Of a DNA stretch of 23,121 nucleotides, positions 1 to 22,804 are shown piece after piece. This DNA comes from Candidatus Sericytochromatia bacterium (GTDB taxonomy: Bacteria > Cyanobacteriota > Sericytochromatia > S15B-MN24 > UBA4093): contig JAKFBU010000013.1 of the NCBI GenBank assembly GCA_036676985.1, positions 1-23,121 on the forward strand, in the 5' to 3' direction. The position numbers and the translations under genes were made by a program. The stretch's first letter is position 1. The number at the start of each line of letters is the position of its first letter. The notes beneath the pieces were generated by a model. It did no database searches. It worked only from the letters and a program-made list of their open reading frames with translations, and was not told where the DNA came from.

Positions 1-303
1 GTTGGCAGCCTGGACCGACAGCTCGCGCATACGCTGCAGGATGCTGGTGGTCTCGACGAGGGCGCCCTCGGCGGTCTGCAGGAGCGAGATGCTGTCCTGC
101 GACATCCGGGAGGCCGTCTGGAGACCGTTCACCTGCGAGCGCATCTTCTCGGCGATCGCCAGACCCGCGGCATCATCCGCAGCGCCGTTGATCCGCAATC
201 CCGAGGAGAGACGCTGCAACGACTTGCTGAGGGCAGTGTCGTTCATCGTCAGCTGACGGTGGGCGTTCATCGCCCCGACGTTGGTGTTGATCCGAAGACC
301 CAT
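1..303 (-). CDS. fliC: Flagellin, N-terminal 101 codons (runs off the window edge)
   Basis: Not in the ORF track; translated by hand from the ATG at 303: [101 protein letters not shown]. This is the classic flagellin N-terminal domain. Shine-Dalgarno AAGGAGG lies at 311-317. Confidence 0.98.
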
Positions 304-326
304 GAGTTTACCTCCTTAGTAGGGAA

Positions 327-348
327 GAGAGAACCTCCGTGTTCTCCC
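327..348 (-). promoter_or_regulatory. Putative CsrA/RsmA-binding hairpin in the flagellin 5' UTR
   Basis: mRNA reads GGGAGAAC-ACGGAG-GUUCUCUC, a stem with ANGGA in the loop. A second AAGGA overlaps the Shine-Dalgarno sequence. Confidence 0.65.
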
Positions 349-386
349 ACACTGACGGGCGCTGAATCGCCCTGCTTCCACGCTTT

Positions 387-413
387 GTTTCGGCCGTCCT
401 GCGCCGAACTTTA
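387..413 (-). promoter_or_regulatory. Sigma28 (FliA/SigD) promoter of flagellin
   Basis: Minus strand reads TAAA(413-410)-N15-GCCGAAAC(394-387), against the consensus TAAA-N15-GCCGATAA. An AT-rich tract lies immediately upstream at 420-436. Confidence 0.88.
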
Positions 414-432
414 GATCCGAAAAAATATAGTT

Positions 433-2811
433 TTATGCTGTTGTGACCGGCATCCGCATGGCAGCGAGCCGCTGCCGAGCCAGCGAAAGCCTGGGATTCA
501 GGCTCAGTGCCATCTGGTACATGGTCCGGGCGTCCTCCTCGTTTCCTCCCTGGGCGGCGCACTCGCCGATCAGGAAGTACGTGTCGGCGTTTTCGGGCTC
601 CTCCTCCCGCGCCTTCAAGAGGAACGAGAGGGCGGCCTCATGGAGGCCCTTCTGCTGGAGCAGCCGGCCCACCGAGAAGGCGAGGCCCGCAAGATCCAGA
701 TAGAGCATGGCCCCGATGGCCCGCTCCGCGTCCGCGTAGCGCTCGGCAAGGAGTAGGTGCTCGGTGGCGAGCGTCCAGACCTCGACGGCCCGCTGGCTCG
801 CGGCGTCGGTGGGCAGCTCCGTGCTGGCGCCGTCGAGCAAGGACAGGAAGGCTTCCAGGTACCGTGCGTCCTGGCCGTACGAATCGGTCGCTTCGGCACG
901 CGCCGCTTCGGCTTGTAGCGCCTCGCGGGCCTCCGCCAGATGACCGAGTCCCATCCGGGCGATGCCCAGCTGGACGCGTAGTCCTGGCAGGTTGGGGCTC
1001 AGGGCGAGCTCTCGCTCGAGCGCTTCTTGGGCCTCCTGGTAACGCCCGATGGTGAGGGCAGCCTGGCCGATCAGGTGACCGAGTTCCGGGGTGTTCGGGG
1101 CGACCTCGTCGGCCTTGCGCCACGCGGCGAGCGCCTCTTCGTACTGGCCCGTCTTGTAGCAGACGCTGCCCAGGTTGATCCAGGCGCGCTGGTAGTTCTC
1201 GTCCGCCTCGGCGGCCTGAGTCATGTACTCGAAGGCCTTGGCGAGGTTGCCCTCGTTCAGGTGCGAGACGCCGAGATTGGTCAGGATCTCGGGATCGGGG
1301 TACCCGCACTCCTCGAGGGCGCGCTCGAACTGCTGGCGGGCCTGGGTCCACTGCTCCTGGCGGGAGTAGATGGCCCCCAGGGCGCTCGAGGTCTTGCTCG
1401 TCGGGACCGTGGGGTCGTTGCCGGCGGCAAAGACGATGCCCGCGAACTGCCGGCACTCCTCGAAGCACTTGGTCGCCTCGTCGAGCCGGTCCAGGGCCAT
1501 CAGGATCTGGCCCTTGGTGAAGCGGACGTCGGGGTAGGTGGGGTAGATGGCGATCGCCTCGTCCGCCAGTTCGAGTCCTTTCTCGTACTGCTGGGTGTTG
1601 CGGTAGTGCTCCACCAGGCAGAAGTACAGGTTGGCGTAGTAGCCGGTCGAGTGCGCGGCCTTCTGCTCCTTGAGGAGGCTCAGGGCCTTCACGTAGTTCG
1701 TCTCGGCTTCCTCGGCCCGGTTCAGGAGCTTGTAGGTCTGGCCCAGGTTGAAGTAGACGTATGCGTACTCCGGCTCGCGCTTCTGCTGCTCGAGCAGGAT
1801 GGCGAGGTTGCGCTGGAACTTGTCGCGCTGGTCGAGGTACTGGTCCAAGTAGCCGCGGTGAATGATGTGGGCCGTGCAGGCGCTCTGGGGAAGTCCCGTC
1901 CGCTCGGCAGCCATCACGATCTGCTCGTGGATGATGCCCTCGTACCGCATGTCCGGGCGGTTCTGGAAGAGGCGGAAGATGAGCGCCAGCTGGCGATGAT
2001 GGCCGGCTTTGCCCACCAGGTTCTCGATGACCAGGCTGTAGCCGATGTTCCCGTCGTTCCGGACGGCCTTGCGGACCTCGTTGTGCCACTGGGCCGGGAC
2101 CGTCTCGTCGGCGTCCAGCACCAGGATCCACTGGCCGGTGGCATGCTTGAGCGATTCGTTTCGGGCCGTGGCGAAGTCCCCGGTCCAGGCGTGGTGGAAG
2201 ATCTTGGCGCCGTAGCGCTCGGCGATCTCGATCGTGCGATCGGTCGAGCCGGTGTCCACGATGATCATCTCGGTGACCAGGTCCTTGACGCTGGCGAGGC
2301 AGTCCTCGAGGAACTCCTCCTCGTTCTTGACGATCATGCAGAGGCTGATAGTGGGCTCGACGGGCTTGGCGAGTTTGACGACGTCCTCGAGCTCCGGCGG
2401 GATCGAGTCTCCGCTCGCGCGCTGCTTGCGCACGGTCTCGAGCTGGCTCTTCTTGGCGCTGGCATGCGTGGGGTCGAGCTCGAGCACCCGGCGGAAGAAC
2501 ACCTGGGCCACCGCGTACCACTCGAGCTTGAACATGAGGACGCCCATGGAATTGAGGGCGTCTGTCGAGTAGGGGTCGAGCTCGAGCGACTGGCGCAAGG
2601 CGATTAGCGCCTTGTCGTACTTCATCTGCTGGAAGAGGATGACGCCGAGCTGGGTGAAGAGCTTGGCGTCCTTTTGATCCAATTCGAGGGCTTTGAGGAG
2701 GTTGGCGGCAGCTCCCTCGAGGTCGCCCTTATCGTAGGCACGCTGTGCGTTTGCTACGGCTTGTTCGCGCGTGAGGGCGGCCGAGACCGATTTGACGATC
2801 TTGAGAGCCAT
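433..2811 (-). CDS. TPR-GT2-TPR glycosyltransferase, probable flagellin O-glycosyltransferase
   Basis: N-terminal TPRs, a central GT-A/GT2 domain (ISLCMIVKNEE, VDTGSTD, WTGDFATARN, LVLDADE, YEGIIHEQ, HRGY) and a long C-terminal TPR array. Adjacent to flagellin. RBS AAGGAAGG. Confidence 0.9.
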   Translation of the reverse strand: MALKIVKSVSAALTREQAVANAQRAYDKGDLEGAAANLLKALELDQKDAKLFTQLGVILFQQMKYDKALIALRQSLELDPYSTDALNSMGVLMFKLEWYAVAQVFFRRVLELDPTHASAKKSQLETVRKQRASGDSIPPELEDVVKLAKPVEPTISLCMIVKNEEEFLEDCLASVKDLVTEMIIVDTGSTDRTIEIAERYGAKIFHHAWTGDFATARNESLKHATGQWILVLDADETVPAQWHNEVRKAVRNDGNIGYSLVIENLVGKAGHHRQLALIFRLFQNRPDMRYEGIIHEQIVMAAERTGLPQSACTAHIIHRGYLDQYLDQRDKFQRNLAILLEQQKREPEYAYVYFNLGQTYKLLNRAEEAETNYVKALSLLKEQKAAHSTGYYANLYFCLVEHYRNTQQYEKGLELADEAIAIYPTYPDVRFTKGQILMALDRLDEATKCFEECRQFAGIVFAAGNDPTVPTSKTSSALGAIYSRQEQWTQARQQFERALEECGYPDPEILTNLGVSHLNEGNLAKAFEYMTQAAEADENYQRAWINLGSVCYKTGQYEEALAAWRKADEVAPNTPELGHLIGQAALTIGRYQEAQEALERELALSPNLPGLRVQLGIARMGLGHLAEAREALQAEAARAEATDSYGQDARYLEAFLSLLDGASTELPTDAASQRAVEVWTLATEHLLLAERYADAERAIGAMLYLDLAGLAFSVGRLLQQKGLHEAALSFLLKAREEEPENADTYFLIGECAAQGGNEEDARTMYQMALSLNPRLSLARQRLAAMRMPVTTA

Positions 2812-2899: not shown

Positions 2900-5800
2900 T
2901 CAAACATGCACGGATTGCCCCAACGCTGCGGCCCCTTGCCACCCGTCGACGGACAGATCGTCCAGCGTGCGCTTTCCGACCTTGCCCGCTCGTTGGGCGT
3001 CCCGCTCCTCCCCATGGGTCACGATGCAGTCCACCGCGGTGTAAAGCCGGGCGAGACCCGGCAGATCCAGGGCGTCCGGAACCAGGAGGAGATCGGGGCC
3101 ATCCTCGGGATCGAGGCCCGCCTCGGCCAGGGCGCCGGCAATCCTCTCGCCGGCATCCTCGGGCGTGACGCCCTGGCTCGGATCGAGCCAGAGAACGAGG
3201 CTCACGTCCGCGTCGGCCGGGAAGGCACGCGCGTAGCTGGTGACGACCTCCTGCCAGGAGGTGGAGCCCCACTGGGGGTGATGGAGGAAGGCGTAGCGGC
3301 GTCGATCCTCGAGCGGCAACGGCATCAGCCCCGCCTGAAACGGGTCGGAGAGCGCGAAGCGAGTCGGGGTGCGCATGCCGAGGATGCGCAGGCGCTCGAG
3401 GATCCGCTCGGCCATGTGCGCCCACGTGAAGCCGGACAGGATCCGGTCGCGTGCCCGCTTGCCGACCGCTTTGGCATGCGCGGGGTCGGCCACCACCGAT
3501 TGCATCAGCGTGATCAGGGCGTCGCCATCGGGCTCGGCCCACCAGTAGCCGACGGCGCTGGGGGGGAGGGACGACGGGGGGAGGGGGACCTCGCGCGCCG
3601 GAATCAGGAAGGCGGTCTCCGAGTCGCAGAAGTCCAGGCAGGCCCCGTATCCCGTCACGATGACCGGCAGGCTCGTTGCCATGGCCTCCGCGATGGGTAG
3701 GGCGAAGCCTTCCCCGCGATAGGGGTGGACCAGGCAATGGCATGCCGCGTAGAGGCCGGCAATCTCGGCATCGCTGAGCGGATCGTCCAGGTACTCGATT
3801 TCCGGAGCCAGTGGATTGGCCTGGATCTCGGCGATGCGGTCCTTTGCCGTCTGGCCCTTGTAGAAGGACTTGCCACCGAGGTCCTTGATGACCAGGCAGA
3901 CGTCGTCGGCCGCGGTGAAGGCCTTCACGTACGCCTCCAACAGGACGTCGATGCCCTTGCGCAGGATCGTGCCTCCGACGAAGAGGAACTTGAAGCGTTT
4001 CCGGGTCGCGAGGGGGTACTTGGGGGCGTCCGGGTGCAGGCGATCGGTGTCGACCCCGTTCGGGATCACGATGACCTTGTCGGCGGGAATGCCGCTGCGC
4101 AGATAGCCGTCGCGCACGTGGCTCGTGGGCACCCAGATCTCGTCCACCTGGTGCGTCATGGGCTCGACCCACTCGTGGGGAATGCCCCCGAACTCCCAGG
4201 GCTGGATCATCGCCCAGGCCCCCTCGGCGGGCGGTTCGAACTTGGGCGGCCACTGGTGACGCACGTGGACGTCCGCCGGACCTGTCAAAGGGGCGTTGGT
4301 GCGATCGGCGATCACCTGGAGCGAGGGGTCGACCTCGGGACCGAACTCATCGGCCTCGTAGGGGACGATCGAGAGCTCGAGACCCGACTCGGCGAGGCGC
4401 CGGCAAACTTCACGGTTGATGAGCGCCAGGGAGTGGCGGACGAATTGCGAGCCCTCCCAGACGAGCCGCAGGCCCTGCCTGGCCCGCACGTCGTGGTAGT
4501 GCCCGACGAGCTCGTCCAGGTAAGCGTCGAAGCCGCGTGGCGCCTGGATGGCTCGCTGCATCCGACCGAGCAGGCCTGGGTCGCGGACGAACTGGAAGAG
4601 CGCGCTGCCCAGCCCCGGGGCGTTGCGGGGATCGACCAAGTAGCCGGTCTTGCCCTCCTCGATGAAGTCGGGAATGCCGCCGATGCGGCTGCCGATGACC
4701 GGGCAGCGGGCCGCAAGGGCCTCGGCGACCACCAGGGGGGCGCAGTCTTCCCAGATGGAGGGGATCACGACCACGTCGACGCGCTTGAGTAGCTCGGGCA
4801 GTTGCTCGACGTCGTAGCGGCCATGGAACTTGACCAACCCCTTGGCGTCGATCTCATGCAGCATGTCCTCGTAGGCCTTGGGGCCGCTGCCGAACAGGTG
4901 CCCCTCGATCTGATCCCGGCCGAAGGACTGTAGCGCCCGGACGAGGACGTGTACCCCCTTCTGGGGCAGGAGGCTGCCGATGAAGCCGACCTTCAACGGG
5001 CGATCGAGTGCACCTTCGAGGGGGCGTCGCGAGCCCGCTTTCTCCCAGAGCCATTCCACCGTTTCCGGCTGCTGCTGGAGGACGTGGATCCGCGAGGCGT
5101 CATGCCCGCTGCCGGCGTAGAGCTCCTTGACCCGGTGGGAGACGGCGAGATGCCGATCGACCCAGCGGTTGAGCATCTGCCGTCCGCTGTCCGCGCGCAA
5201 GGCGTAGCCACCCGTCTGATCGGGCCGACCCACGCAGATGGCGCACTTGCTGCCGTCTTCCGAGGGGCCGCTGCAGAGTGTCAGGTCCTCCTGGAAGAGG
5301 TACATACGCGGGCAAATGGGCCAGTAGTTGTGGGAGGTGAAGACGCTCGGCACTCCGGCCTGCTTGATCTCGGCCGCGATGCCCGTCGAGAAGTTGAGCA
5401 GGCTGTGGTAGTGGACGATGTCCGGCCGCAGCTCGGCGACCAGCTGCGCGATGATCCGCCGCATCTGGGGATCATCGGCCTCGCGCTCCGGGTGCTCCAT
5501 GTCGTAGAAGATCGCCGGGCGGTTGTAGATGGCGAAGAGCTGGACGCCCTCCTCCTCGCTCGCCTCGACGTGATAGGCGGGCTTGTCCGGTCGATTCTGG
5601 GACGGGGTGTAGATCACCGTAATCCGGTGACCCCGCCGGACGAGCGCCTTGGCGATCTGCCGCGGCAAGATGGTGCCGCCGCCTTCCTCGGCCCAGCCGT
5701 ACATGGTGAAGAGGATATGCAACGGATGATCCGCCGGGATGACCTTGGGGGCCGGCGCGCTCGCCGCGACCGTCGAGAAGGCCTCCAGGGGGCGCGCAGT

Positions 5801-8800
5801 CACCGCGACCGTGGGCGGGAGCGTCGTGAGTTGCGGCACCATGCCAAGGCCGCTGTCGATGGCCAGGGCCCAGGCCTCCTTGTCCATGACCCCTTGCGCC
5901 CACCGGCTTTGGGCCGCGGTGTACAGGTCGGGGTGGTTCAGGACGACCCGCGCCTTGATGCGTTGATCCTTGGCGCGGTCTTGACCGTAGACGCTGGCGC
6001 CGTGGATGCGATAAAAGTTGGTCGCCGCCGGCACGTGGACCCCGCGATGTCCCTGCTTGCCGCAGCGGATCCAGAAGTCCCAGTCCTCGTACCCTTCATG
6101 CGTCGGGAAGCCGCCCACGTCCTCCCATGCCTGCCGTTTGAAGAGCGTGGCCATGGTCAGGTAATTGAAGCGCTGCAGGAGCTCGAAGCTGTAGGCGGGC
6201 GGCACGTCGAAGGCCGCCGTGTTGCCGAATTTCTGGACGTTGGGATAGGCGACCGAGGCCTCCGGATGGGCTTCGAGCGCCGCCACGCAGGCGGCGAGGT
6301 AGTTCGGGGGGAGCTTGTCGTCGGCGTCGAGCGTGACGATGTAGTGGCCGCTCGCCTGTTCGATGCCGCTGTTGCGCGCGCGCAGGTGTCCGCCGTTCTG
6401 CTGCGTGTGCAGGCGGATGGGGAACGTCGGGTAGTCGGCCATGAGGGCCTGCGCGACGTCGCGCGAATCGTCGGTGCTGCCGTCATCGACGATGATGACC
6501 TCGCACGCCGGATGGGTCTGGGCGAGGACGCTCTCCACCGCCGTGCGCAGGAAGCGACCGTAGTTGTAGCAGGGGATGATGACCGAGACGCGCGGTTCGC
6601 CCGGGGGGGGCGCCTCGTGGGGAATGGTCCCCTTGGTGATCTGGAAGTACCGTAGGCCCAGCGCCTGGGCAAGGTTGCGCTCGCGCGGACAGCCCGTGTC
6701 CAGCACGGCGGTGGCCGCTCGGAAGACGGAGACCCGTGCGCTCGACGGAGCGTCGATCAGGAGCACGTCGGGAATGGCATCCGGATCGTAGCCGTGCTCG
6801 GTGAGCCAGGCCAGGATCTGCTCTTGGCGCGTTTCGGCCGCGCCTTCCGGAACCCGGATCATGAGGCACAGGTCGAGGTTGGACGCGTAGTCCGCCAGGA
6901 CCGCCGCGAGGTTCGCTTCCCAGGCCTCGGGATCCGCCACGAGCCAGCGATCCCGGGCCGCGGTGGCGACGTCCAGGGCCGGAGCCTCCCAATCGGCCTC
7001 TTCCACGGAGGGGTGGCGCAGCGGCAGCGACTCGCCGCTCCATGCGGGCGGGAGCTCCGGCCGGGTCGTCGCGGCCCGCCGCAGGGCGTCGGCGTCGGCG
7101 TCGGGCAGGACGGTGCGACCCCGCTCCTCGGCAAGGCTCATTAGCGTCCGAGTCCCCGCTTGATCGCCAAGCGGGAGGAAGGCATGGGCGCTGAGCAACT
7201 GGGCCAGGAACACGGAGTTGAACTCCGCCGGGCGCACCTGCTGGATGTCGACGCTGGGCGTCAGGGCAGGGTCGAGTCCGAGGGAGGCGACGGCCTCCTC
7301 ATAGGCTAGGGCGATCTGCTGGGTCTGGGGGTCGCTGGTGCTCAGGACGACGAGGGGGTACGGGTCTTCCGGCTGGAAGGTGGTGAGGTACGACGCCATG
7401 GCGCGCCCCAGGGCGAGCGGGTCGAGCTCGTCGCCGGTGGCCGCGATGAAGGTGGCCGCCGTGGTCTCGGCAGGGACGTTGGCCTCGCTCGGCCAGCTGA
7501 CCTGGAAGAGCTCGATTTGCCGGGGATCTTGCCCGAGCACCGTGTAGTTGGCTTGTTCGGGTTTCGGCGCGATGCGGGCGACCTCGAGGTTGCTGGCGAT
7601 CGCCGCGAGCCCGAAGCGCTCGAGGGCCTTCTGGAGCACCTCCTGCCCGGCTTGACAGTCACCGCTCATCAGCAGGCTCACCCCCAGGTTGTTGTGGGCC
7701 TCGGGGAAGTCCGGCGCCAGTTCCAGGGCCGCTTCAAACTCAGGCACCGCCAGCCCCGGATCCGGCAGCTCGGCGCGCAGCATGAGGTTGCCCAGATCTA
7801 GGTGGGCCGAGGCACGCGCCGATACCTCGTCGGCACAGAAGGCGATCTCCGGATAGAGCTCGTCGATGGCATAGCGTTCGCGCATCTCGCGCCGCATGCG
7901 CCGCGCCTCCTCGCCGAGTCGGTCGTGGCGCTTGCTGGAGGTCGAGTGGCTCTCCTCGTGGGCGCGGTACTTGAGCAGCTTGTCCGGGAGCACCGCGAAG
8001 CGGCAGCGGGCCACGGCGGCCTTTAGCCAGAACTGGAAGTCGTGGGGCCAGCCGTACTCCTGCAGGCCGATGCGACGGAGGATGGAGCGCCGGAACATGG
8101 CCGTCGGGTTGGGGACCAGACAGCACCGGAACATCTGTCGGCCGAACAGCCGACGTTCGAATACGTCGTTGGCGATGGGTCGGATGATGCTGCCGCCGAG
8201 GTCTCGCCCCTCCGCGTCGATGTAGCTCGCGTCGTGGTAGATGACCTCGAGCGACGGATCAGCGAGAAAGGCCGTGACCTGGCGCGCGATTTTCTCCGGG
8301 TGCATGAGGTCGTCGCCGTTGGCGATGGCGATCAGGTCGCCCGTCGTGGCCTCCAGGCAGCGGTTGAAGGTCTCATGCAGCCGCGCTCGACCCTTGTTCG
8401 CTTGGTATTCATACCGTACGCGCGGATCGTGCAGGTACTTCGCGACCACCTCGCGGGTGCCGTCGGTCGAGCCATCGTCGAGGATGTACAGCTCGAAGGC
8501 CGTGTGGGTCTGCTTCAAGATGGCCTGGATGGCCTCGTCGAGGTAGTGGGCGTAGTTGTAGACGTAGGCGACGATGCTGACGCTGGGCAAGGGCCGCTCT
8601 ATCGGGAGGAGGCTCGGGTGTGCCGCTAGGAAGGCATCCTCCGCATCGGTCGTGCGCTGTCTTTCGAACTCGGTGGGAGGCAGGTATAGGGGGCTCCTGC
8701 CGAGGATGCCCTCCGCAATGCGATCGAGAGAGGCATGCCGCCCGGGGGCGAGCTCTTCGACGGACTGGTAGCGAAGCTCGCCGTGCGAGAAGTTCACAAC

Positions 8801-11680: not shown

Positions 11681-11688
11681 GGTGCCTC

Positions 11689-15370: not shown

Positions 15371-15394
15371 ATTCATTCGCCTCCACTGGTAGTT

Positions 15395-15421
15395 ACATCG
15401 GCTTGATGAGGAGAACCTTAA
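15395..15421 (-). promoter_or_regulatory. Putative sigma28 promoter for the synthase/tailoring operon
   Basis: Minus strand reads TTAA(15421-15418)-N15-GCCGATGT(15402-15395), directly upstream of the RBS. Confidence 0.65.
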
Positions 15422-15767
15422 ACGCCCGGATGGCCATGCCGAGGCCTGAGCCAGCAAAGCCGGATCACGCCGTCGGCCTAGGTGGTCCTCACATGGGCTT
15501 CGACTGGTTTGCACCCCAACAGGATCGGCCTAAGGAAAGCGCTGTACAGTATACCGGCGCCATGCCTGATTGGAAACCTGAGCCTGCCGTCGCTCTGAGC
15601 CCAGGAGGTCTTGCCAAGAATGGGTTAGGCCTGCGTCTCGGCCGCGATGACCTCGGCCATTCGCCCGGCGCCACGACCATGCCACAAGTCGCATGGCCCG
15701 GCCCGACTCCAGGGCAGCCGTCGACATGCCTGGCGATTTGGCCCCCTTCACCGGAACGGCCGGGTCT

Positions 15768-16715: not shown

Positions 16716-17024
16716 GGATCTTCCTGCCTCTGCGGTCATGGGTGGAGCTGCGAGTTACTGAGTGGGTGGCGATAGCCCCTCTCGGGAAAGCATTAGCCGT
16801 CGACCGTGGTGGGACCGCCGTGGTATAGAGCGCGAACGGGCATGCTTCAGTCGACCTTATTATGTGTCGACTCCCTCAGTCATAAACCGTGCGGGCGAGC
16901 CAGTTCTGGGCCCATGGAGGCTCCCTGCGCGGCCATGACCCCTGCTTGGTAGTATCGTCAGCCCCCAGCAACACTTGAGATTTGCCGTAGAATCGAAGGG
17001 TGCTCGCAACGGAGGTGAATCCAC

Positions 17025-18179
17025 ATGCGCCCGTGGGCGAAACGAATGGACGCGATCGCGTTCTCTGCATCGGTAAATCTGGCCCAGCGGGTCCGCGACG
17101 ACAAGGCGGCGGGCCAAGAACTGTACGACTTCACGGTAGGAGAGCCTCACTGGTCACCCCCCGAGTCCGTGCTCGCGGCGGTTCATGCTGGCTTGGAGCA
17201 TGGGCATACCCGCTATTCGGACTCCCGCGGGCTGCTGCCCCTACGCGCGGAGCTGGCACGGATCCTCTCGGTGCGCGGGGTGCCCGCAGCCGAGGAGTTC
17301 GTGCTGCTCTCGCCAGGCGGCAAGCAGGCTATCTACACGGCTTGCCATGCCCTCTTGGATCCGGGTGATGAGGTCATCCTCTTTCCGCCCTGCTGGGTTA
17401 GCTATGCAGACATCATCAAGCTCGCGGGGGGAGTTCCGATCGAAGTGCCTTGCCATGCCGCCGATCGCTTTCGCCCGAGCGAGGAGGCGCTGCGCTGCGC
17501 CATCACGCCCCGGACCAAGCTCGTGATCGTCAACAACCCCGGCAACCCAACCGGTGCGGTCTGGGAGCCCGCCGTTGTTTCCATGGTGGCGCGGGTGGCT
17601 GCCGAGCACGACTTGTGGCTCCTCGATGATCTGGTCTATGAGGCTTTCAACTATTCGGGCGCACCGGTTTTGCCGATTGGGGCAACCCCCGAGGGCCGCG
17701 AGCGTACGCTTACGGTCGGCAGCTTCTCCAAATCCTACGCCATGACGGGCTTCCGAGTAGGCTACTTGAGCACGCCCGAATTCCTATTCTCACCCTGCTT
17801 GAAGGTCGTGCAGCAGACGGTTACGTGTCTGCCGGTCTTCGTACAGGAAGGAGCCTTGGCGGCTTTGCGCGCGGCCCCGAGCTTTCCGGCTCACATGGCC
17901 GACCATTACGCTCGGCTCGCCCGCGTGGTCTCGGACGAACTGGGAGAGATCGAGGCAGGGCCCCTGGAGGGGGCCTTCTACGCCTTCGTGGACGTTCGCC
18001 GAAAGGGCATGACCTCGACTGCTTTCTGCGACTGGCTCTACCAAGCGTACCGCGTGGCCTGCGTCCCCGGATCCGCGTTCGGCGAGGCCGGCGAGGGGTG
18101 GGTCCGCGTTTCCTATGCGTGCGAGGAGTCGCAGCTGCGCGAAGGCATGCGCCGCCTGGCAGCAGCCATCCGGACCTAA
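17025..18179 (+). CDS. PLP-dependent aminotransferase class I/II (aspartate aminotransferase-like)
   Basis: VGEP, GGKQA, NNPGNPTG, DLVY and SFSKSYAMTGFRVG (PLP lysine), EGWVRVSYA. RBS GGAGGTG. The only plus-strand gene in the window. Confidence 0.93.
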   Translation: MRPWAKRMDAIAFSASVNLAQRVRDDKAAGQELYDFTVGEPHWSPPESVLAAVHAGLEHGHTRYSDSRGLLPLRAELARILSVRGVPAAEEFVLLSPGGKQAIYTACHALLDPGDEVILFPPCWVSYADIIKLAGGVPIEVPCHAADRFRPSEEALRCAITPRTKLVIVNNPGNPTGAVWEPAVVSMVARVAAEHDLWLLDDLVYEAFNYSGAPVLPIGATPEGRERTLTVGSFSKSYAMTGFRVGYLSTPEFLFSPCLKVVQQTVTCLPVFVQEGALAALRAAPSFPAHMADHYARLARVVSDELGEIEAGPLEGAFYAFVDVRRKGMTSTAFCDWLYQAYRVACVPGSAFGEAGEGWVRVSYACEESQLREGMRRLAAAIRT

Positions 18180-19171
18180 CGGGAGGGAAGGGCCGCCACA
18201 AGCTCGTGGGCGATTCGGTTGGCGCCCTGTCCGTCCAGGACCGCTCGTCCGGCTGTGCCGAGGCGCTGCCGCTCTTCCGGGTCCTGCATCAAGCGGGTCA
18301 TTGCCTGCTTCAGCGAGAGGAGCCAAGCCTCGCCCTTGGCCCAACCGACTGAGATCAGGCTGCCTCGCTCCTCGAGCGAGGCCAGGTTCACCAGTTGATC
18401 TTCTCCTACGCAGAGCGCGACGGTAGGCACACCCGAGCATGCCAACTCGTAGAGCGTCTGACCGCCCGCGGTGATGGCGAGGTCAGCCGTCCGGATCCGC
18501 CGCGGCATGTCGGGCGGATGGCGGTGGAGTTGAACGTTGGGGCCGGCCGCCGGCACGCGCTGAAAAAAGGGCCCGACGATGAAGTCGATGACGAAGTCCG
18601 GGGCTTGGTGAGCGGCCCAGTCTTGCAAGGCTTCCAAGAGGCGATCGGCAATTCCCAAGAGGTCATCGCCCCCGAGCGTGACCAAGACATTGGCCGGGAG
18701 TTGCTTGTAATCTCGTGCAGGCGGTACCAGGAAGTCGGGACGCACGATCTGGTAATCGGGTCCGAGTAGCAGCCGGGTTGTCGCTCCCGTACGATAGGCG
18801 AGCTTGATGGCCCCAGGAGCCCCGTTGATGACGAGGTCAACCGGCAATTCTCGATCAGCCTTGTCGTCAAAGCAGGCGAGCACCATCCCTGAGGGTCGGC
18901 GTGCCGCAAGGGTGCAGGGGTCAAGCCGGTAGCTGTCGGCGACAAGGGCCCGGGCCCCGGCTTGTTCGGCCTCAAGCCACAGGCTCTCGGGGCTTGCCGG
19001 GCCGACCCGTACCGACATCCCCTGCTCGCTGAGAACCCCCTCGAGGCTCGGCTCGACCAGGAATACGACCTCGCGGCCCATGGCCTTAAGGCTTCGGGCC
19101 AACCCGATTCCGCGCATGGCGTGACCGAGGCCCACGCCGTGGCCTCCGTCGACGTGCAGGGCGATCGTCAT
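18176..19171 (-). CDS. pseG: PseG/SpsG-like UDP-sugar hydrolase
   Basis: DGGHGVGLGHAMR (catalytic His motif), DSY, LLLGPDY, LVTLGGDD and TAGGQTLYE, in pse context. Confidence 0.85.
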   Translation of the reverse strand: MTIALHVDGGHGVGLGHAMRGIGLARSLKAMGREVVFLVEPSLEGVLSEQGMSVRVGPASPESLWLEAEQAGARALVADSYRLDPCTLAARRPSGMVLACFDDKADRELPVDLVINGAPGAIKLAYRTGATTRLLLGPDYQIVRPDFLVPPARDYKQLPANVLVTLGGDDLLGIADRLLEALQDWAAHQAPDFVIDFIVGPFFQRVPAAGPNVQLHRHPPDMPRRIRTADLAITAGGQTLYELACSGVPTVALCVGEDQLVNLASLEERGSLISVGWAKGEAWLLSLKQAMTRLMQDPEERQRLGTAGRAVLDGQGANRIAHELVAALPSR

Positions 19172-19857
19172 GGCCCCTCCCCTCCGGGGACCCGCTCGAT
19201 CTTTAGGACATAGGTCGCGCCATTGAGCTCAAAGAAGGCGGGGTAGCGCTCATTGTCGACCACCCGGAGCAGATTGAACTGCTCGGCTAACGTCTTGGTG
19301 GGATCCAGCCGACTGTCCTGGGGGCGCCGTCGTGGGTAGTAAGTCGAGTCGCCCTTCTGCTCGCGGCCTGATGCGACTACGTCCGGATAAGTCGCTAGGA
19401 AGGCACGGCAGAGGGTGAGGGTCGTCGCAGCCTGCCGTGCGCGCAGGTCTGCCACCAACTCGGTCCCGTCGAAACGCAAGTGCTCCTGCAGATAGATACG
19501 GCCGCTATCCACGGATTCAGCCGCCTCGAAGAGGGTGACCGAGATCTCGTTCTTGCCCTCAAGGATCTGCCATGTCAGGGGGGACCAGCCCTTTCCTTGC
19601 GGTAGGGCACTCTCGTGAACGACCAGGTTGTGCCGATGGCGCTTCAGCTCAGCTGGTCGGATCAGGTGCCCGCAGCTCAGGATGAACGCGAAGTCACCGG
19701 TGGGCAAGTGTTCGGGGGTATGCGCCCAGCGAACCTGATGGCCGGCTGCGCGCAACTCGTCGATAAAGCTCGGAAGGTAGGTATTGAGCCAGGAGTCGGC
19801 ATCCGACAGAATCGTCAGGGCGAAAGGGGGCCTGCTCAAGGCATCCTGTCCCTCCAT
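19168..19857 (-). CDS. Nucleotide-sugar N-formyltransferase (PseJ-like)
   Basis: LVVHESALPQGKGWSPL, VDSGRIY, YYPRRRP and LLRVVDNERYPAFF give a formyltransferase fold. The start is uncertain (19839-19869). Confidence 0.85.
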   Translation of the reverse strand: MEGQDALSRPPFALTILSDADSWLNTYLPSFIDELRAAGHQVRWAHTPEHLPTGDFAFILSCGHLIRPAELKRHRHNLVVHESALPQGKGWSPLTWQILEGKNEISVTLFEAAESVDSGRIYLQEHLRFDGTELVADLRARQAATTLTLCRAFLATYPDVVASGREQKGDSTYYPRRRPQDSRLDPTKTLAEQFNLLRVVDNERYPAFFELNGATYVLKIERVPGGEGP

Positions 19858-19858
19858 G

Positions 19859-20596
19859 TTACTGACCATACTGCTTCTGTTCGACATGGGCGTTGAGGGA
19901 CGACCAGTCGGGATGGGCGTCCAGCAAGGCCAGGCAGTCGTTCATGTCGAACTCGGGTCGGGTCTGGTACAAGGCTGTAAGCATTCGCTCGATCAGCTCG
20001 AAGTCTTCCGGGGTGTCGACGGTCCAGCGGTGCCGGCTGAGATCCGGGTGGTGGGTGATGTGCTCGATCCGGAATCGAGCAGGCTGCCGATTGATGAAGG
20101 GGGTCACGTGCTCGCGTTGGGCGGCTTCGGTCGCCTCGATGAAGGCCTGGTCGAGGGCCTCAAAGGAGAACACCTCCGTGTCCATGCCGCGAGGGAACGA
20201 GCGGATCAAGACGTTGGAGATGTAGTTGACGTCCGGCATGCGGTCGTGGAAAGCGGCGATGATGCCGTCGATGACGGCCGGATCGATGAGCGGGCAGTCG
20301 GACGTCACCCGAACGACGACATCGGCGCCTGCATGGAGGGCGGCTCCATGGTAGCGCGAGAGTACGTCGTCCTCTGAGCCGCGAAACGAGCTCACGCCGA
20401 TTGAGTCGCAGAGCGCGACGATGGGGTCGTCGCTCACGTTGAGGGTGGTGGCGATGACCAGGCCTGCGGCGCGGGTCACACGGCGAAGACGCTCGACCAT
20501 GTACTCAAGGAGGGTCTTGTTTAAGACCCTCTTGAGAACCTTTCCCGGCAAACGGGTTGACGTCATGCGCGCTTGGACGATTATGACGGTCTTCAT
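19859..20596 (-). CDS. pseF: SpsF/PseF-type acylneuraminate cytidylyltransferase
   Basis: QARMTSTRLPGKVL, RGSEDDVLSRY, RVTSDCP, REHVT and RWTVDTPEDF. ATGA overlap with pseC. Confidence 0.85.
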   Translation of the reverse strand: MKTVIIVQARMTSTRLPGKVLKRVLNKTLLEYMVERLRRVTRAAGLVIATTLNVSDDPIVALCDSIGVSSFRGSEDDVLSRYHGAALHAGADVVVRVTSDCPLIDPAVIDGIIAAFHDRMPDVNYISNVLIRSFPRGMDTEVFSFEALDQAFIEATEAAQREHVTPFINRQPARFRIEHITHHPDLSRHRWTVDTPEDFELIERMLTALYQTRPEFDMNDCLALLDAHPDWSSLNAHVEQKQYGQ

Positions 20597-21789
20597 GGTG
20601 CGAACTGTTCCACGGTGTCTCGTATGGCGTCGATAACGTACTGGACCTCGTCGTCGCTCATTCTCGGGTAGAGTGGCAGGGAGACGACACGAGAGTAATA
20701 TGCCTCAGCATGTGGAAAGTCTCCCGGTAGGTAGCCGAAGTTCCGCGCGTAGTAAGGCTGCAGGTGGACGGGGATATAATGGACATTCACGCCCAATTGT
20801 AGGTTCTTGAGATGGTTGAAGGCCGCAAGCCGGTCGATCGTCTTGAACTGCAAGACGTAGAGGTGATATGACGAACGCGTGTTGGGAGCCTGGTAGGGGA
20901 CCACGATCTCGGCCAGTTGGCCGAACGCCTCGTCGTACCGGCGGGCGATTGCTCGCCGGCGCTCCACGAAGCTATCTAGCTTTTCAAGTTGCTTCAGCCC
21001 CAAGGCGCACTGGAAGTCCGTGAGCCGGTAGTTGTATCCCAGGTCCTGCATCTCGTAGTACCAGGGGCCGTCCTGGCGCGACAATAGCGCGGGATCTCGG
21101 GTGATTCCATGGGTTCGCAAGAGCATCAGCCGGTGGTAAAGCGCTGAGTCGTTGGTGGTGATGGCGCCGCCCTCACCCGTGGTGACATGCTTTACTGGGT
21201 GGAAGGAGAAGATCGTCATGTCGCTGTGGGCGCAGCCACCCACTCGGAACGTATTCCCGTCTATCTCGTAGGTCGCCCCGATGGCATGGGCCGCATCCTC
21301 GATGACCGTTAGGTCGTGGGCATTTGCCAGTCTGGCGATCGCGTCCATACGGCAAGGTTGGCCCGCGAAGTGCACCGGGATGATCCCCTTGGTCGAACCT
21401 GTGAGGCGTCGCTCGACCTCGCTTGGATCTAGGCAATAGGTCGCGGGATCGATATCGGCGAGCACGGGGCGGGCGCCCGTGTAGATGACACAATTGGCCG
21501 AGGCGACGAAGGTGTTGGGCGAGGTGATGATCTCGTCGCCGGGCCCGAAGTCCGCTGCAAGGGCTGCGAGGTGCAAGGCGGCCGTGCCGTTCGCGACTGC
21601 CACGGCATAGCGAGCCCCGCAGTAATCGGCGAGCGCTCGCTCGAATTGGGCGACGAGCGGGCCCTGCGTGAGCCAGTCGGATTGCAAGGACTGGACGACG
21701 GCCTGGATGTCGTCGTCATCGAGCCACTGGCGGCCGTAGGGGATAGGGGTCGCGGACGCTTGGAGCTTACTTTGTGAGGGCATAGTCAT
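20593..21789 (-). CDS. pseC: UDP-4-amino-4,6-dideoxy-N-acetyl-beta-L-altrosamine transaminase (DegT/PseC)
   Basis: IPYGRQ, WLTQGP, ANGTAALH, EDAAHAIG, FSFHPVKHVTTGEGG, LGYNYRLTDFQ and VHYIPVH. Start is 21789 or 21783. Confidence 0.93.
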   Translation of the reverse strand: MTMPSQSKLQASATPIPYGRQWLDDDDIQAVVQSLQSDWLTQGPLVAQFERALADYCGARYAVAVANGTAALHLAALAADFGPGDEIITSPNTFVASANCVIYTGARPVLADIDPATYCLDPSEVERRLTGSTKGIIPVHFAGQPCRMDAIARLANAHDLTVIEDAAHAIGATYEIDGNTFRVGGCAHSDMTIFSFHPVKHVTTGEGGAITTNDSALYHRLMLLRTHGITRDPALLSRQDGPWYYEMQDLGYNYRLTDFQCALGLKQLEKLDSFVERRRAIARRYDEAFGQLAEIVVPYQAPNTRSSYHLYVLQFKTIDRLAAFNHLKNLQLGVNVHYIPVHLQPYYARNFGYLPGDFPHAEAYYSRVVSLPLYPRMSDDEVQYVIDAIRDTVEQFAP

Positions 21790-22804
21790 CGCCAACTTTG
21801 AACGTAGGGTCGACGTGCTGCTTGATGAGGGCTCGTAGCTGCTCGACGGAAAGCCAATCGGAGTTAGTGCCACTGTTGTACTTGAAGCCGGGCTCGCAGG
21901 GCTTGCCGTTGAAGGTCTGAATGAATTCTTGGACGTCCCAAAGGGGCATCGAGGGCAGGATAACGAAGTGGTTCTTGAACTCGACCGAGCTGATGGCATC
22001 GGTTTCGGTGATCATCTCCTCGTGGAGCTTTTCACCGGGTCGGATGCCGACGTATTCCACCCTGGCGCCGGGAGCGATCGCCTCGGCGACGTCGGTGATG
22101 CGGTAGCTCGGGATCTTGGGGACGAAGATCTCGCCCCCCCAGGCACGATTGAGGGCGTCCAGCACCATTTGAACGCCGTCCTCCAGCGTGATGTTGAAGC
22201 GGGTCATGCGCTCATCGGTGATGGGGAGGACGCCGTCCGACCGCTTCTTCAGGAAGAAGGGGATCACGCTGCCACGGCTGCCCATGACGTTGCCGTAGCG
22301 AACCACCGAGAACTGGATGTCGCGTTTGCCCTTCATGTTGTTGGCTGCAACGAACAGCTTATCAGAGGCAAGCTTGGTTGCGCCATAAAGGTTGATGGGG
22401 GCGGCGGCCTTGTCCGTGCTCAGAGCGACGACCTTCTTGACATGGTTGTCAAGACAGGCCTCGATGACATTCTGGGCACCGATGATGTTGGTCTTGACCG
22501 CCTCAAAGGGATTGTACTCTGCGGCGGGCACTTGTTTAAGGGCAGCCGCATGGACGACGATGTCGATCCCTTCCATGGCGCGGTTTAGGCGTTCCTTGTC
22601 CCGCACGTCTCCGATGAAGTAGCGGATTTGTGGGAAGCGGTGGTGCGGGAACTCCTGGGCCATCTCGTACTGCTTCAGCTCGTCCCGAGAAAAGACCACC
22701 ACTCGGGTGATCTCCGGGGAGCGGGTGAGAATGGTCTGGACGAATTTCTTCCCGAAGGAGCCCGTCCCGCCGGTAACGAGAAGGGAGCGTTCTTTAAGAG
22801 TCAT
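21767..22804 (-). CDS. pseB: UDP-N-acetylglucosamine 4,6-dehydratase (inverting)
   Basis: TGGTGSFG, FSRDELKQ, HAAALKQVPAAEYNP, STDKA, YGATK, RYGNVMGSRGSV and GIRPGEKLHE. Confidence 0.96.
   Translation of the reverse strand: MTLKERSLLVTGGTGSFGKKFVQTILTRSPEITRVVVFSRDELKQYEMAQEFPHHRFPQIRYFIGDVRDKERLNRAMEGIDIVVHAAALKQVPAAEYNPFEAVKTNIIGAQNVIEACLDNHVKKVVALSTDKAAAPINLYGATKLASDKLFVAANNMKGKRDIQFSVVRYGNVMGSRGSVIPFFLKKRSDGVLPITDERMTRFNITLEDGVQMVLDALNRAWGGEIFVPKIPSYRITDVAEAIAPGARVEYVGIRPGEKLHEEMITETDAISSVEFKNHFVILPSMPLWDVQEFIQTFNGKPCEPGFKYNSGTNSDWLSVEQLRALIKQHVDPTFKVGDDYALTK

Follow-up and report, generated by a model that had tools for sequence, protein, structure and literature searches.

A candidate flagellin glycosylation island with a GmaR-like enzyme and a five-module glycosyltransferase in a member of Cyanobacteriota

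The window, 23,121 nucleotides long, is the whole of contig C13 of genome G000, and no further contig sequence lies beyond it. The organism is a flagellated, probably non-photosynthetic member of Cyanobacteriota. One strand carries the start of a flagellin gene (its first 101 codons), a gene for a 792-aa TPR-GT2-TPR protein and a gene whose 2,429-aa product combines five glycosyltransferase (GT) modules; next come a tailoring cassette and PseB/PseC/PseG/PseI/PseF-type genes (Pfam, NCBIfam and segment scans). The remainder of the flagellin gene, with matches to Flagellin_N and Flagellin_C, is on contig C45, which is joined through an exact 121-bp end overlap; the joined flagellin has 276 aa, and FlaG and FliD come next on C45. 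Exact contig-end overlaps thus give the order FliD-FlaG-flagellin-TPR-GT2-megasynthase-tailoring-Pse genes, with all genes except the aminotransferase on one strand. The contiguity of flagellin, TPR-GT2, five-module GT, Pse-type pathway and tailoring cassette claimed in an earlier note on this DNA is therefore borne out, flagellin being represented in the window by its 5' part only. At the flagellin end lie:

1-303, minus strand: flagellin gene, 5' part, first 101 codons (Flagellin_N 107.2 bits)
387-413, minus strand: sigma-28-like promoter upstream of flagellin, TAAA, 15 bases, GCCGAAAC (direct sequence reading)
433-2811, minus strand: 792-aa TPR-GT2-TPR protein, GmaR-like candidate flagellin-directed O-glycosyltransferase (Glycos_transf_2 at 156-285, TPR blocks on both sides)

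An AAGGAGG ribosome site precedes the flagellin ATG at 303, and the promoter can be compared with the sigma-28 consensus, TAAA-N15-GCCGATAA.

The GT2 domain of the 792-aa protein has GmaR, the Listeria flagellin GlcNAc-transferase (PDB 22ao_A), as its best non-TPR solved relative (E 6.5e-34), followed by SunS. Its motifs V-D-T-G-S-T-D (185-191) and D233-A-D235 (nucleotide-binding, DXD) are invariant in nine orthologues. Flagellin adjoins the full-length orthologue in 9 of 10 fetched loci of relatives; among the 80 best named homologue loci, flagellin is in the flank of 40, from several phyla, and NeuB in the flank of only one. The available text of PMC13317340 gives GT2 plus TPR as a mark of flagellin glycosyltransferases, and Listeria monocytogenes GmaR, C. 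difficile GT1 and the predicted Clostridium FGTs share with the 792-aa protein this combination beside flagellin. Unlike these enzymes, however, the 792-aa protein has TPR on both sides of GT2; it is paired with a nonulosonate pathway, and no anti-repressor role like that of GmaR is implied.

Two types of flagellin nonulosonate transferase are known: Maf, from Campylobacter, Aeromonas, Shewanella and Magnetospirillum, and FlmG, from Caulobacter and Brevundimonas. The earlier note had seen no Maf- or FlmG-like gene in the window and proposed a genome-wide profile search, which extends the observation to all of G000: there are no matches to the Maf family (PF01973) or to GT41 (PF13844). The PF01973 profile matched in one relative only, G002, and gave no bacterial positives among 14 controls. 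For FlmG the search used GT41 as a proxy, on the presumption that the FlmG GT domain is the GT41-type match obtained in the Caulobacter control. G000 likewise has no TagB-type match (PF04464) and none to PF06002 or PF07922; the GT42 and GT52 searches matched nothing anywhere.

The giant protein (2900-10189, minus strand) combines a KpsC/KpsS-like GT-B module with two GT2 and two GT4 modules; it also has a weak TPR (814-843) and two family-less stretches:

8600-10189, minus strand: module 1, aa 1-530, KpsC/KpsS-like GT-B, candidate CMP-nonulosonate transferase (PF05159, Capsule_synth, 47 bits, cut-off 20)
7850-8578, minus strand: module 2, GT2, aa ~538-780 (Glycos_transf_2 88 bits)
6605-7789, minus strand: aa 801-1195, weak TPR (814-843; TPR_11 23 bits, below cut-off), then a family-less stretch
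5750-6604, minus strand: module 3, GT2, aa 1196-1480 (Glycos_transf_2 120 bits)
4490-5749, minus strand: module 4, GT4, aa 1481-1900 (Glycos_transf_1 92 bits, Glyco_transf_4 69 bits)
3320-4489, minus strand: module 5, GT4, aa 1901-2290 (Glycos_transf_1 56 bits)
2900-3319, minus strand: C-terminal 139 aa, no known family (no match in Pfam)

The GT parts proper of modules 3, 4 and 5 span aa 1199-1440, 1500-1880 and ~1990-2270. A segment of ~80 aa is common to the end of the 801-1195 stretch and the C-terminal tail (BLASTP E 2e-5). Tail homologues, 32-51% identical, occur at L160, L161, L164 and L165 and recur with GT4 genes, and module 5 homologues with 48-60% identity are found in relatives' flagellin loci. 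The slot upstream of TPR-GT2 is occupied in relatives by other multi-GT proteins (1,216 aa, GT2 and GT4; 1,495 and 1,138 aa; 1,857 aa, methyltransferase and two GT2), which include homologues of the GT modules of the giant protein. An independent metagenome contig (L169, GC 58%) carries, in order, a 1,993-aa megasynthase of KpsC-like and GT2 modules, TPR-GT2, flagellin, FlaG and FliD, with 61% identity in module 1 and 51% in TPR-GT2.

Such a long frame could be an artefact of assembly or annotation, through the merging of several genes or through chimerism of the contig, in which case there would be no five-module protein. The assembly, 100% complete, consists of 79 contigs with 5.09% contamination, and two relatives, G012 and G024, encode the same modules as separate genes. 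However, the frame is open across 7,290 bases of 65% GC DNA, and each segment matches its GT family in frame. A recorded 2,422-aa protein (two sources) is identical across query residues 8-530 (module 1), all 11 of the long relatives tested are multi-GT fusions (1,046-2,667 aa), and L169 supplies the 1,993-aa counterpart. An artefact is thus very improbable.

Four cysteines are invariant in module 1, and its HP motif aligns with that of KpsC. Its AF2 model (pLDDT 94.2) has KpsC structures as best fold matches (6mgb_A, Z 15.8, rmsd 4.3, 287 residues aligned; another at Z 15.7), ahead of the next unrelated GT-B (Z 12.8) and WbbB (Z 11.8); by sequence the relation to KpsC is weak (profile E 1.9e-4). 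KpsS1, also of PF05159, is a proven Pse5Ac7Ac transferase according to the available text of PMC12887879 and PMC4487303; module 1 is likened to it through the Pfam family and published descriptions. As far as those descriptions go, Acinetobacter baumannii KpsS1 (GT118), Gtr59/KpsS2, KpsC/KpsS (GT107) and WbbB (GT99) share with module 1 the PF05159 family, a GT-B fold nearest KpsC, the HP motif and neighbouring nonulosonate genes. Module 1 differs in its length (~520 aa), its invariant four-cysteine motif, its position at the N-terminus of a multi-GT fusion and its setting beside flagellin, where neither island nor flanks contain export genes. The family keeps company with nonulosonate synthesis: of 20 same-phylum loci, 11 have NeuB at a distance of no more than 10 kb, and module 1 occurs in 6 of 41 relatives, all six belonging to the 19 with a full-length NeuB. 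It is not flagellin-specific, because flagellin was found within 10 kb in none of the 20 loci and three genomes that carry it lack flagellin genes altogether.

That all 20 loci lie away from flagellin speaks for another possibility, in which the megasynthase and Pse genes serve a non-flagellar glycoconjugate, either a nonulosonate-capped O-antigen or capsule of the WbbB/KpsS1 kind or another glycoprotein, and lie beside flagellin by chance. The characterised relatives, KpsC, KpsS, KpsS1 and WbbB, all serve capsule or O-antigen rather than proteins (PMC12887879, available text), and WbbB is said to have an N-terminal ulosonate-capping module before its polymerising modules (PMC12887879 in part). 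The organism has the lipid A genes LpxB, LpxC and LpxD, and the homologous Pse and GT cluster of G012 and G024 stands apart from the flagellin genes, next to an IS21. However, inspection of the island and its two flanks, the extent of that search, turned up no flippase, polymerase, ABC transporter or initiating phosphotransferase, and membrane-span-like segments are absent from all 15 island proteins (highest 19-residue Kyte-Doolittle mean 1.77). In several relatives homologous GT4, GT2 and tail modules fill the same slot between TPR-GT2 and the sugar genes, and the megasynthase, TPR-GT2, flagellin order recurs on L169. A non-flagellar role is thus quite unlikely.

Module 1 might instead act on flagellin itself, placing the nonulosonate straight on Ser/Thr as Maf and FlmG do; the other four modules would then extend it, and TPR-GT2 would glycosylate other sites or do no more than bind flagellin as an adaptor. 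Maf, GT41 and TagB-type genes are lacking in the genome, and an enzyme transferring nonulosonate to flagellin is expected at the locus because G002 has a Maf-TPR gene in the equivalent island. Among the 11 long relatives of module 1, three have fused TPR blocks and one a GT41 domain, as in protein-directed enzymes. The flagellin of Aeromonas hydrophila AH-3 reportedly bears a heptasaccharide whose linking sugar is a Pse derivative. On the other side, all characterised PF05159, GT99 and GT107 relatives, as far as the sources available describe them, have sugar or lipid acceptors; the module 1 family occurs with NeuB in flagellin-less genomes too; in the giant protein, module 1 itself lacks TPR; and the catalytic motifs of the GmaR-like enzyme are intact, which an adaptor would not need. 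Direct transfer by module 1 is therefore unlikely.

The presumed donor sugar would be made by the genes farthest from flagellin, together with a synthase gene inside the tailoring cassette:

21767-22804, minus strand: PseB inverting 4,6-dehydratase (TIGR03589 527.8 bits, cut-off 407.75)
20593-21999, minus strand: PseC aminotransferase (TIGR03588 513.1 bits, cut-off 423.5; match from residue 86)
19859-20596, minus strand: CMP-sugar cytidylyltransferase, PseF-like (CTP_transf_3 103.2 bits; Pfam match only)
19168-19887, minus strand: formyltransferase-like protein where PseH would be expected (Formyl_trans_N 37.3 bits; NF005414 61.3 bits, below cut-off)
18176-19171, minus strand: PseG-like UDP-sugar hydrolase (TIGR03590 135.4 bits, cut-off 153.55)
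14330-15514, minus strand: nonulosonate synthase, NeuB/PseI type (NeuB 253 bits; PseI 246.6, cut-off 340.25, and NeuB_NnaB 278.9 bits, both below cut-off)

The true start of PseC is probably ~80 codons later than listed, since the listed frame overlaps pseB. The synthase is the only full-length NeuB found by a scan of the genome. The backbone is predicted to be Pse-type, not Leg, because PseB and PseC pass their cut-offs; the sugar itself may not be Pse, since the NCBIfam equivalog cut-offs are not reached by PseG, PseI or the cytidylyltransferase, and Pfam and NCBIfam detected no acetyltransferase of the PseH type among the island genes. The tailoring cassette comprises:

10259-10933, minus strand: PIG-L family de-N-acetylase (PF02585 88 bits)
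10958-11680, minus strand: RraA-like, HMG/CHA-aldolase-type protein (PF03737 62.5 bits; NF006731 64.9 bits, below cut-off)
11689-12504, minus strand: Amidohydrolase_2 family protein (PF04909 56 bits)
12495-13145, minus strand: SAM methyltransferase (Methyltransf_12, Methyltransf_25)
13138-14436, minus strand: ATP-grasp L-amino-acid-ligase-type enzyme (LAL_C2 59.5 bits, ATP-grasp_4)
15768-16739, minus strand: second SAM methyltransferase (Methyltransf_23 99.9 bits)
17025-18179, plus strand: class I/II (aspartate-type) aminotransferase, the sole plus-strand gene (Aminotran_1_2 200.9 bits)

The listed ATP-grasp start is probably too far upstream, because the frame overlaps the NeuB gene. G012 and G024 have counterparts of the PIG-L protein, 56-57% identical, in their Pse loci.

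The best explanation of contig C13 is a flagellin glycosylation island, with a GmaR-like enzyme, a five-in-one GT and a modified pseudaminic-acid pathway directly upstream of flagellin. Gene content, fold, family membership and synteny are observed, and from them we infer the individual reactions, their sequence and the target. The best-supported reading, which we consider somewhat more probable than not overall, is a hybrid route in the cytoplasm that would prime, extend and cap a glycan directly on flagellin. The TPR-GT2-TPR protein would recognise flagellin and add a first sugar, probably HexNAc or hexose, to Ser/Thr of the 276-aa protein, and the two GT2 and two GT4 modules of the megasynthase would add further sugars. 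Module 1 would then use a CMP-activated donor to place a nonulosonate on a sugar acceptor as a cap or branch. The donor would be made from UDP-GlcNAc via PseB, PseC, the formyltransferase-like enzyme (which would substitute for PseH), PseG, the NeuB-type synthase and the cytidylyltransferase. More speculatively, PIG-L, the ATP-grasp ligase, the two methyltransferases, the aminotransferase, the RraA-like aldolase and the amidohydrolase could re-dress one nonulosonate amino group, perhaps with a methylated amino-acid-type acyl. Clostridium botulinum flagellin is said to carry legionaminic acid with an N-methyl-glutamyl group; a methylated amino-acid acyl of this kind would need a ligase and a methyltransferase, both encoded here, although in C13 the chemistry is guessed from gene content and the backbone would be Pse-type rather than Leg.

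Of the hybrid route proposed in the earlier note, the three enzyme assignments are supported: the GmaR-like TPR-GT2 by its solved relative and its flagellin synteny, the extender by homologous modules in the same slot of relatives' multi-GT proteins, and the KpsS-like module by its KpsC fold, PF05159 membership and NeuB neighbours. The synteny search that the note suggested agrees, in the relatives' loci and on L169; the step order and the glycan are deduced. The description of the system as self-contained does not fully hold, since the island has no recognisable PseH and likewise no genes to supply the donor sugars of modules 2 to 5.

The island points to flagella being decorated with sialic-acid-like sugars by a route that uses neither Maf nor FlmG, the two enzyme types known so far. 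The presumed outcome is the same as theirs, a CMP-activated Pse-/Leg-type sugar on cytoplasmic flagellin with TPR repeats recognising flagellin, as far as the available sources describe it. In contrast to those systems, the genome has neither MAF_flag10 (PF01973) nor GT41-type domains, recognition and nonulosonate transfer would reside on separate proteins, and the nonulosonate would join a sugar, not Ser/Thr. The C. difficile type B system follows a similar logic of priming, extension and an exotic end group on flagellin, with soluble enzymes encoded beside fliC: GT1 adds GlcNAc, GT2 two rhamnoses and GT3 a sulfonated peptidyl-amido sugar (PMC5207246, available text). Here, in contrast, the steps are deduced from genes, the extenders are fused in one 2,429-aa protein and the KpsC-like module would supply the end group, a modified nonulosonate.

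Contig C13, which the window spans in full, belongs to a genome of 4.68 Mb in 79 contigs (rated 100% complete, with 5.09% contamination), and its GC content varies between 58 and 70% along its length. Pfam and NCBIfam scans of 18 long ORFs identified the following genes, in order.

1-303, minus strand: flagellin, first 101 codons
433-2811, minus strand: TPR-GT2-TPR protein, 792 aa (hereafter TPR-GT2)
2900-10189, minus strand: giant protein, 2,429 aa (hereafter megasynthase)
Minus strand: PIG-L deacetylase, RraA-like protein, amidohydrolase_2, methyltransferase, ATP-grasp enzyme of the amino-acid-ligase type
Minus strand: NeuB-type synthase, second methyltransferase
Plus strand: class I/II aminotransferase
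Minus strand: PseG-like hydrolase, formyltransferase-like protein, CTP_transf_3 cytidylyltransferase, PseC, PseB

Comparison of contig ends showed that C13 opens with exactly the 121 bases that close contig C45, and that its last 123 bases match the reverse complement of an end of contig C19 without a difference; the two end sequences occur in no contig of this genome other than C45 and C19. C45 carries the remainder of the flagellin gene followed by FlaG, FliD, a subtilase and a Kelch protein, while C19 carries TsaE, a TsaB/D-type gene, a CNNM transporter, a second and smaller GT2-TPR gene, BamA, OmpH, LpxD, LpxC and LpxB, with FlhA 16 kb away. The overlaps therefore give an island in the order FliD, FlaG, flagellin, TPR-GT2, megasynthase, tailoring genes and Pse genes, with housekeeping genes at both borders. 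The assembly is broken inside the flagellin gene, in the conserved portion that codes for the N-terminus. The joined flagellin has 276 aa, including 62 Ser and Thr residues that are densest between residues 121 and 210, and its ATG is preceded by an AAGGAGG site and by a TAAA-N15-GCCGAAAC element, which we take to resemble the sigma-28 consensus.

The longest ORFs overlap by 233 bases in one place (20593-21999 and 21767-22804) and by 107 bases in another (13138-14436 and 14330-15514). Because the family matches begin only at residue 86 of PseC and residue 68 of NeuB, the true starts of these two genes lie further downstream, and in the pseC/pseB and ATP-grasp/NeuB pairs the genes are probably directly adjacent or share a few bases, in an operon-like manner. 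At the right edge of the window, a 155-aa ORF (22628-23095, plus strand) matched no family, and the segment 22805-23121 is probably the promoter region of the Pse operon, ahead of tsaE on C19.

Designed TPR proteins aside, the best solved relative of TPR-GT2 is GmaR, the flagellin GlcNAc-transferase of Listeria (22ao_A; E 6.5e-34, residues 149-346), and the next is SunS (E 2.5e-22). TPR families match residues 20-130 and 350-790 in the Pfam scan. The nucleotide-binding motif V-D-T-G-S-T-D (residues 185-191) and the DXD motif D233-A-D235 are invariant in nine orthologs, and the GT-A site therefore looks intact at the sequence level. The gene lies 130 bp from the flagellin start. Full-length orthologs are widespread among the 41 relatives searched, and in nine of the ten loci fetched from relatives they directly adjoin one to five tandem flagellin genes, usually with FlaG and FliD next; the sole exception is G016, where no flagellin was found near the ortholog in the 20 kb fetched. 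Among the best 80 homologous loci in named species genomes, whose hosts include Bacillota (Paenibacillus alvei DSM 29), Vulcanimicrobiota/Eremiobacterota, Scalindua and Ignavibacteria, flagellin occurs in the flank of 40 and NeuB in that of one. TPR-GT2 thus belongs to a widespread flagellin-linked GT2-TPR family without a tie to nonulosonates, in agreement with a 2026 Clostridium survey that takes the combination of GT2 and TPR as a signature of flagellin glycosyltransferases (PMC13317340).

The protein resembles the GmaR-like flagellin O-glycosyltransferases in its GmaR-related GT2 domain with motifs kept, in the TPR repeats of the same protein and in its linkage to flagellin; GlcNAc transfer to flagellin Ser/Thr is a putative activity by this analogy. 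A complex prediction that paired residues 13-792 (9-row alignment) with the 215 flagellin residues encoded on C45 (8-row alignment) scored 0.01 against a mark of 0.32, which speaks neither for nor against an interaction. PADLOC returned only TPR noise for this protein, and a relation to the magnetosome protein MamA was dropped as the similarity is confined to the TPR repeats. The second GT2-TPR gene (L007:13104-14420, on C19 about 3.4 kb past the right end of the window) encodes 438 aa with 33% identity to residues 148-593 of the 792-aa protein; in the genome search, a longer 506-aa frame contained one in-frame TGA.

The megasynthase was scanned with Pfam in seven pieces, which delimited five modules.

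aa 1-530: Capsule_synth (PF05159) module (hereafter module 1)
aa ~538-780: GT2
aa 1199-1440: GT2
aa 1500-1880: GT4
aa ~1990-2270: GT4

A sub-threshold TPR lies at aa 814-843. No family matched aa ~860-1195 or the C-terminal tail (aa 2291-2429), and these two stretches have a segment of ~80 residues in common (BLASTP E 2e-5). A 2,422-aa protein recorded in two sources is identical to the megasynthase across residues 8-530 of the latter. PADLOC assigned it to no defense family; a defense-system glycosyltransferase was rejected, as the 'GT4-conflict' Pfam matches are weaker than the ordinary GT4 matches to the same stretches. In having an N-terminal ulosonate-transferase-like module fused to polymerizing GT modules, the protein resembles the WbbB-type capped O-antigen synthases; however, it differs from the WbbB-type ABC-transporter route in that no linked ABC transporter or lipid-carrier initiating enzyme was found in the window and the adjoining contig ends.

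Module 1 scores 47.0 bits against PF05159 when taken alone and 42.7 bits within the whole protein (cut-off 20), the match covering only positions 182-278 of the 310-position model. A search of 1.84 billion cluster representatives recovered 4,518 relatives at E<=0.001 and 621 at E<=1e-30, which are either free-standing proteins of ~520 aa or the N-termini of proteins of up to 2,667 aa; the ten family members looked up are all without a name or called 'hypothetical protein'. The closest database relatives are 1,750 and 1,959 aa long, with 59 and 56% identity. Four cysteines (C46, C53, C67 and C70) are invariant in a 46-row alignment of the module (window positions 8600-10189), as are nearly so an R-x-H-P-N motif and H333-P334. 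The cysteines belong to the N-terminal Rossmann half, where a low-complexity loop separates its first strands, and are probably a zinc site; no description of such a site was found for KpsC or KpsS.

A confident alignment-based AlphaFold model of module 1 (pLDDT 94.2, pTM 0.93) gave only generic GT-B matches in a Foldseek search of the PDB (TM 0.22-0.31). A wider all-against-representatives aligner placed the beta-Kdo transferase modules of KpsC on top (6mgb_A, Z 15.8, rmsd 4.3, 287 of 321 residues aligned; 6mgd_B, Z 15.7), three units above the next family, trehalose-phosphate synthases and other GT-B enzymes (12.8), and scored the GT99 Kdo-transferase domain of WbbB (5fa0_A) at Z 11.8. The family profile reaches KpsC at E 1.9e-4, with the H-P pair aligned to the V-H-P of KpsC, and a single-sequence phmmer search of the PDB reaches KpsC only at E 0.17. 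Module 1 thus resembles KpsC/KpsS (GT107) and KpsS1 (GT118) in its PF05159 score above the cut-off, its KpsC-nearest GT-B fold and its HP motif, which is that of the CMP-sugar site. According to two published accounts (PMC12887879; PMC4487303), KpsC, KpsS and WbbB are retaining CMP-Kdo transferases, retaining transfer of Pse5Ac7Ac is proven for Acinetobacter KpsS1 (GT118), a KpsS homolog belonging to PF05159, and PF05159 genes characteristically adjoin nonulosonate synthesis modules.

The module-1 family shows this same linkage. Within the phylum it occurs in 23 of 401 genomes, and NeuB lies within ~10 kb of the family gene in 11 of the 20 neighborhoods fetched from 28 family matches outside this genome. 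Among the 41 relatives, all six with module 1 are among the 19 genomes that have a full-length NeuB match. The linkage to NeuB (11/20 loci; 6/6 relatives) makes a CMP-ulosonate a candidate donor of module 1. All 11 long members of the family that were scanned are multi-GT fusions, and the TPR blocks present in three of them and the GT41 domain in one fit protein acceptors.

The only full-length NeuB of the genome sits in the island. PseB (527.8 bits; cut-off 407.75) and PseC (513.1 bits; cut-off 423.5) both exceed their NCBIfam equivalog cut-offs, so by these sequence scores the nonulosonate backbone is assigned to the Pse type. PseG falls under its equivalog cut-off (135.4 against 153.55), as does the synthase on both models, slightly higher on the NeuB one (PseI, 246.6 against 340.25; NeuB_NnaB, 278.9 against 399.65); the cytidylyltransferase matches only Pfam CTP_transf_3. 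No acetyltransferase family, and hence no PseH-type enzyme, was found on any of the 18 ORFs scanned in the window. The formyltransferase-like gene located between pseG and pseF suggests a 7-N-formyl group; Pse5Ac7Fo is already known as a natural form. The tailoring genes (PIG-L deacetylase, ATP-grasp ligase, two methyltransferases, aspartate-type aminotransferase, RraA-like aldolase and amidohydrolase) could remove an acetyl group and add a locally made, methylated acyl group of the amino-acid type, a guess from gene content. The model for this guess is the flagellin of C. botulinum, which carries legionaminic acid with an N-methyl-glutamyl group.

The island product might be non-flagellar. 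Flagellin is present in none of the 20 same-phylum neighborhoods of the module-1 family, and three genomes that have the family contain no flagellin genes. G012 and G024 carry a homologous cluster apart from their flagellin genes and beside an IS21, consisting of PseB, PseC, a KpsC-like-GT2 fusion, GT4 with a tail domain, PseF, NeuB, PIG-L, formyltransferase, PseG and a second GT4. Transferases of the module-1 family are therefore linked to nonulosonates in general and are not flagellin enzymes in themselves. In relatives, other large multi-GT proteins occupy the slot directly upstream of the GmaR-like gene: 1,216 aa (GT2 and GT4) in G008, 365, 1,495 and 1,138 aa in G018, and 1,857 aa (a methyltransferase and two GT2) in G004. 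Homologs of the GT4 and tail of the megasynthase in that slot are 48-60% identical. Neither the island nor its flanks encodes a flippase, polymerase, ABC transporter or initiating transferase, and membrane-span-like segments are absent from all 15 island proteins. A non-flagellar product is improbable, and the island probably serves flagellin. In G012, IstA and IstB of the IS21 type directly flank the Pse and KpsC-like cluster (L048:4205-6540), which suggests that the cluster is mobile.

A 4-row alignment of the module identified one locus among metagenome contigs (L169, GC 58%), where the single module-1 sequence had found none. This independent contig, which differs in GC, encodes a 1,993-aa KpsC-like and GT2 protein whose module 1 has 61% identity and exceeds the PF05159 cut-off, followed by TPR-GT2 (51%), flagellin (84% and 76%), FlaG and FliD. 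Synteny, which the earlier note had proposed as a check in related genomes, bears out the pairing of TPR-GT2 with flagellin in relatives and the order megasynthase, TPR-GT2, flagellin on L169. With one to five tandem flagellins in relatives, a collapse of flagellin paralogs in the assembly is possible; that the five-module megasynthase is itself an assembly artefact is extremely improbable.

A search for Maf (MAF_flag10/MptE-like, PF01973) gave no match in the whole genome; the same search found one match each in G002 and G036. The G002 match is a 497-aa MptE-like Maf with C-terminal TPR repeats (L159:15724-17217), an architecture described for Shewanella Maf-1, and lies within the flagellin island of this same-family relative, where the slot upstream of the GmaR-like gene holds GT2-TPR, an AMP-binding enzyme and the Maf-TPR fusion. 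Within the family, nonulosonate transfer to flagellin thus belongs to the functions of this very locus. Searches with PF13844 (GT41), positive in a Caulobacter control with a match that presumably includes FlmG, and with PF04464, a TagB-type domain reported in Tannerella Pse/Leg transferases, also found nothing in this genome, nor did GT42 and GT52 searches, which matched none of the controls either and are therefore uninformative. The earlier note had recognized no Maf- or FlmG-like gene in the window, and this holds genome-wide within reach of the searches. FlmG is a single protein of ~600 aa in which a TPR domain at the N-terminus precedes a GT-B domain at the C-terminus (PMC7591256), whereas here the TPR protein has a GT2 domain (GT-A) and the GT-B module 1 has no TPR ahead of it. 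In a search for FlmG relatives across the class to which a Sphingomonadaceae MAG belongs (66 genomes), four genomes contained full-length family members; two of three weak partial matches were scanned and rejected as FlmG because they are TagB-like (PF04464) and without TPR.

The best reading, favored by a small measure over an even chance, is a route in which the GmaR-like TPR-GT2 would prime flagellin, the fused assembly line of the megasynthase would extend the glycan, and its KpsS1-like head would add the tailored Pse-type sugar. The hybrid route of the earlier note is retained to this extent, with the GmaR-like protein and the KpsC/KpsS1-like head in its favor, while the order of the steps is evenly balanced between right and wrong. 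Its description of the system as self-contained was too strong, because the island encodes neither PseH nor the pathways to the donor sugars of four of the five modules. Alternatively, though this appears unlikely, module 1 might attach the nonulosonate directly to Ser/Thr. A preprint on flagellin pseudaminic and legionaminic acid transferases names two enzyme types only, Maf and FlmG, both of which link the sugar in this way.

In the preferred route of priming, extension and capping, the individual parts come from known families and the novelty lies in how they are combined: a candidate nonulosonate transferase of the capsule type stands at the head of a megasynthase, inside the flagellin island of a genome in which the searches found neither Maf nor FlmG. 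No literature linking flagellin with PF05159, Capsule_synth or GT118 was found in a search that covered sources other than subscription journals and supplementary files. We tentatively propose, with less confidence than the route itself, that the ~520-aa four-Cys KpsC-like GT-B proteins are a large, almost unannotated family of CMP-nonulosonate transferases that usually head megasynthases. Paired with a glycosyltransferase that bears TPRs and acts on proteins (GT2-TPR here; TPR-GT41 near a pilin gene of Nostoc-like genomes), they would assemble oligosaccharides with a nonulosonate cap straight onto proteins in the cytoplasm, a third flagellin route independent of Maf and FlmG. If true, the route of this island would be a different design, in which a GmaR-type enzyme finds the protein, a fused line builds the chain and a capsule-type (KpsS1-like) transferase adds the nonulosonate; it would account for many 'Maf-less' genomes with nonulosonate genes, give thousands of unnamed proteins a function and allow protein carriers to be glyco-engineered with compact glycan assembly lines encoded by one gene.

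On L169, a gene that lies divergently upstream of its megasynthase (L169:33-2780) encodes 915 aa, with a GSCFA domain, a PhyH (dioxygenase) domain and a copy of the tail domain; a PhyH gene is also present in the Nostoc-like nonulosonate cluster L049. L049 and two further clusters of the same phylum, L050 and L051, combine a KpsC-like protein of 904-1,864 aa with NeuB, a cytidylyltransferase, a PseG-acetyltransferase fusion and one or two TPR-GT41 proteins, in one of which the N-terminal ~140 aa resemble the C-terminal end of the KpsC-like proteins. Their genomes (G371, G069 and G305, respectively), marked as cyanobacteria because of a nearby GUN4 gene, have no flagellin genes, and L050 and L051 also hold a type IV pilin-like gene. 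These clusters may represent nonulosonate glycosylation of a non-flagellar protein.
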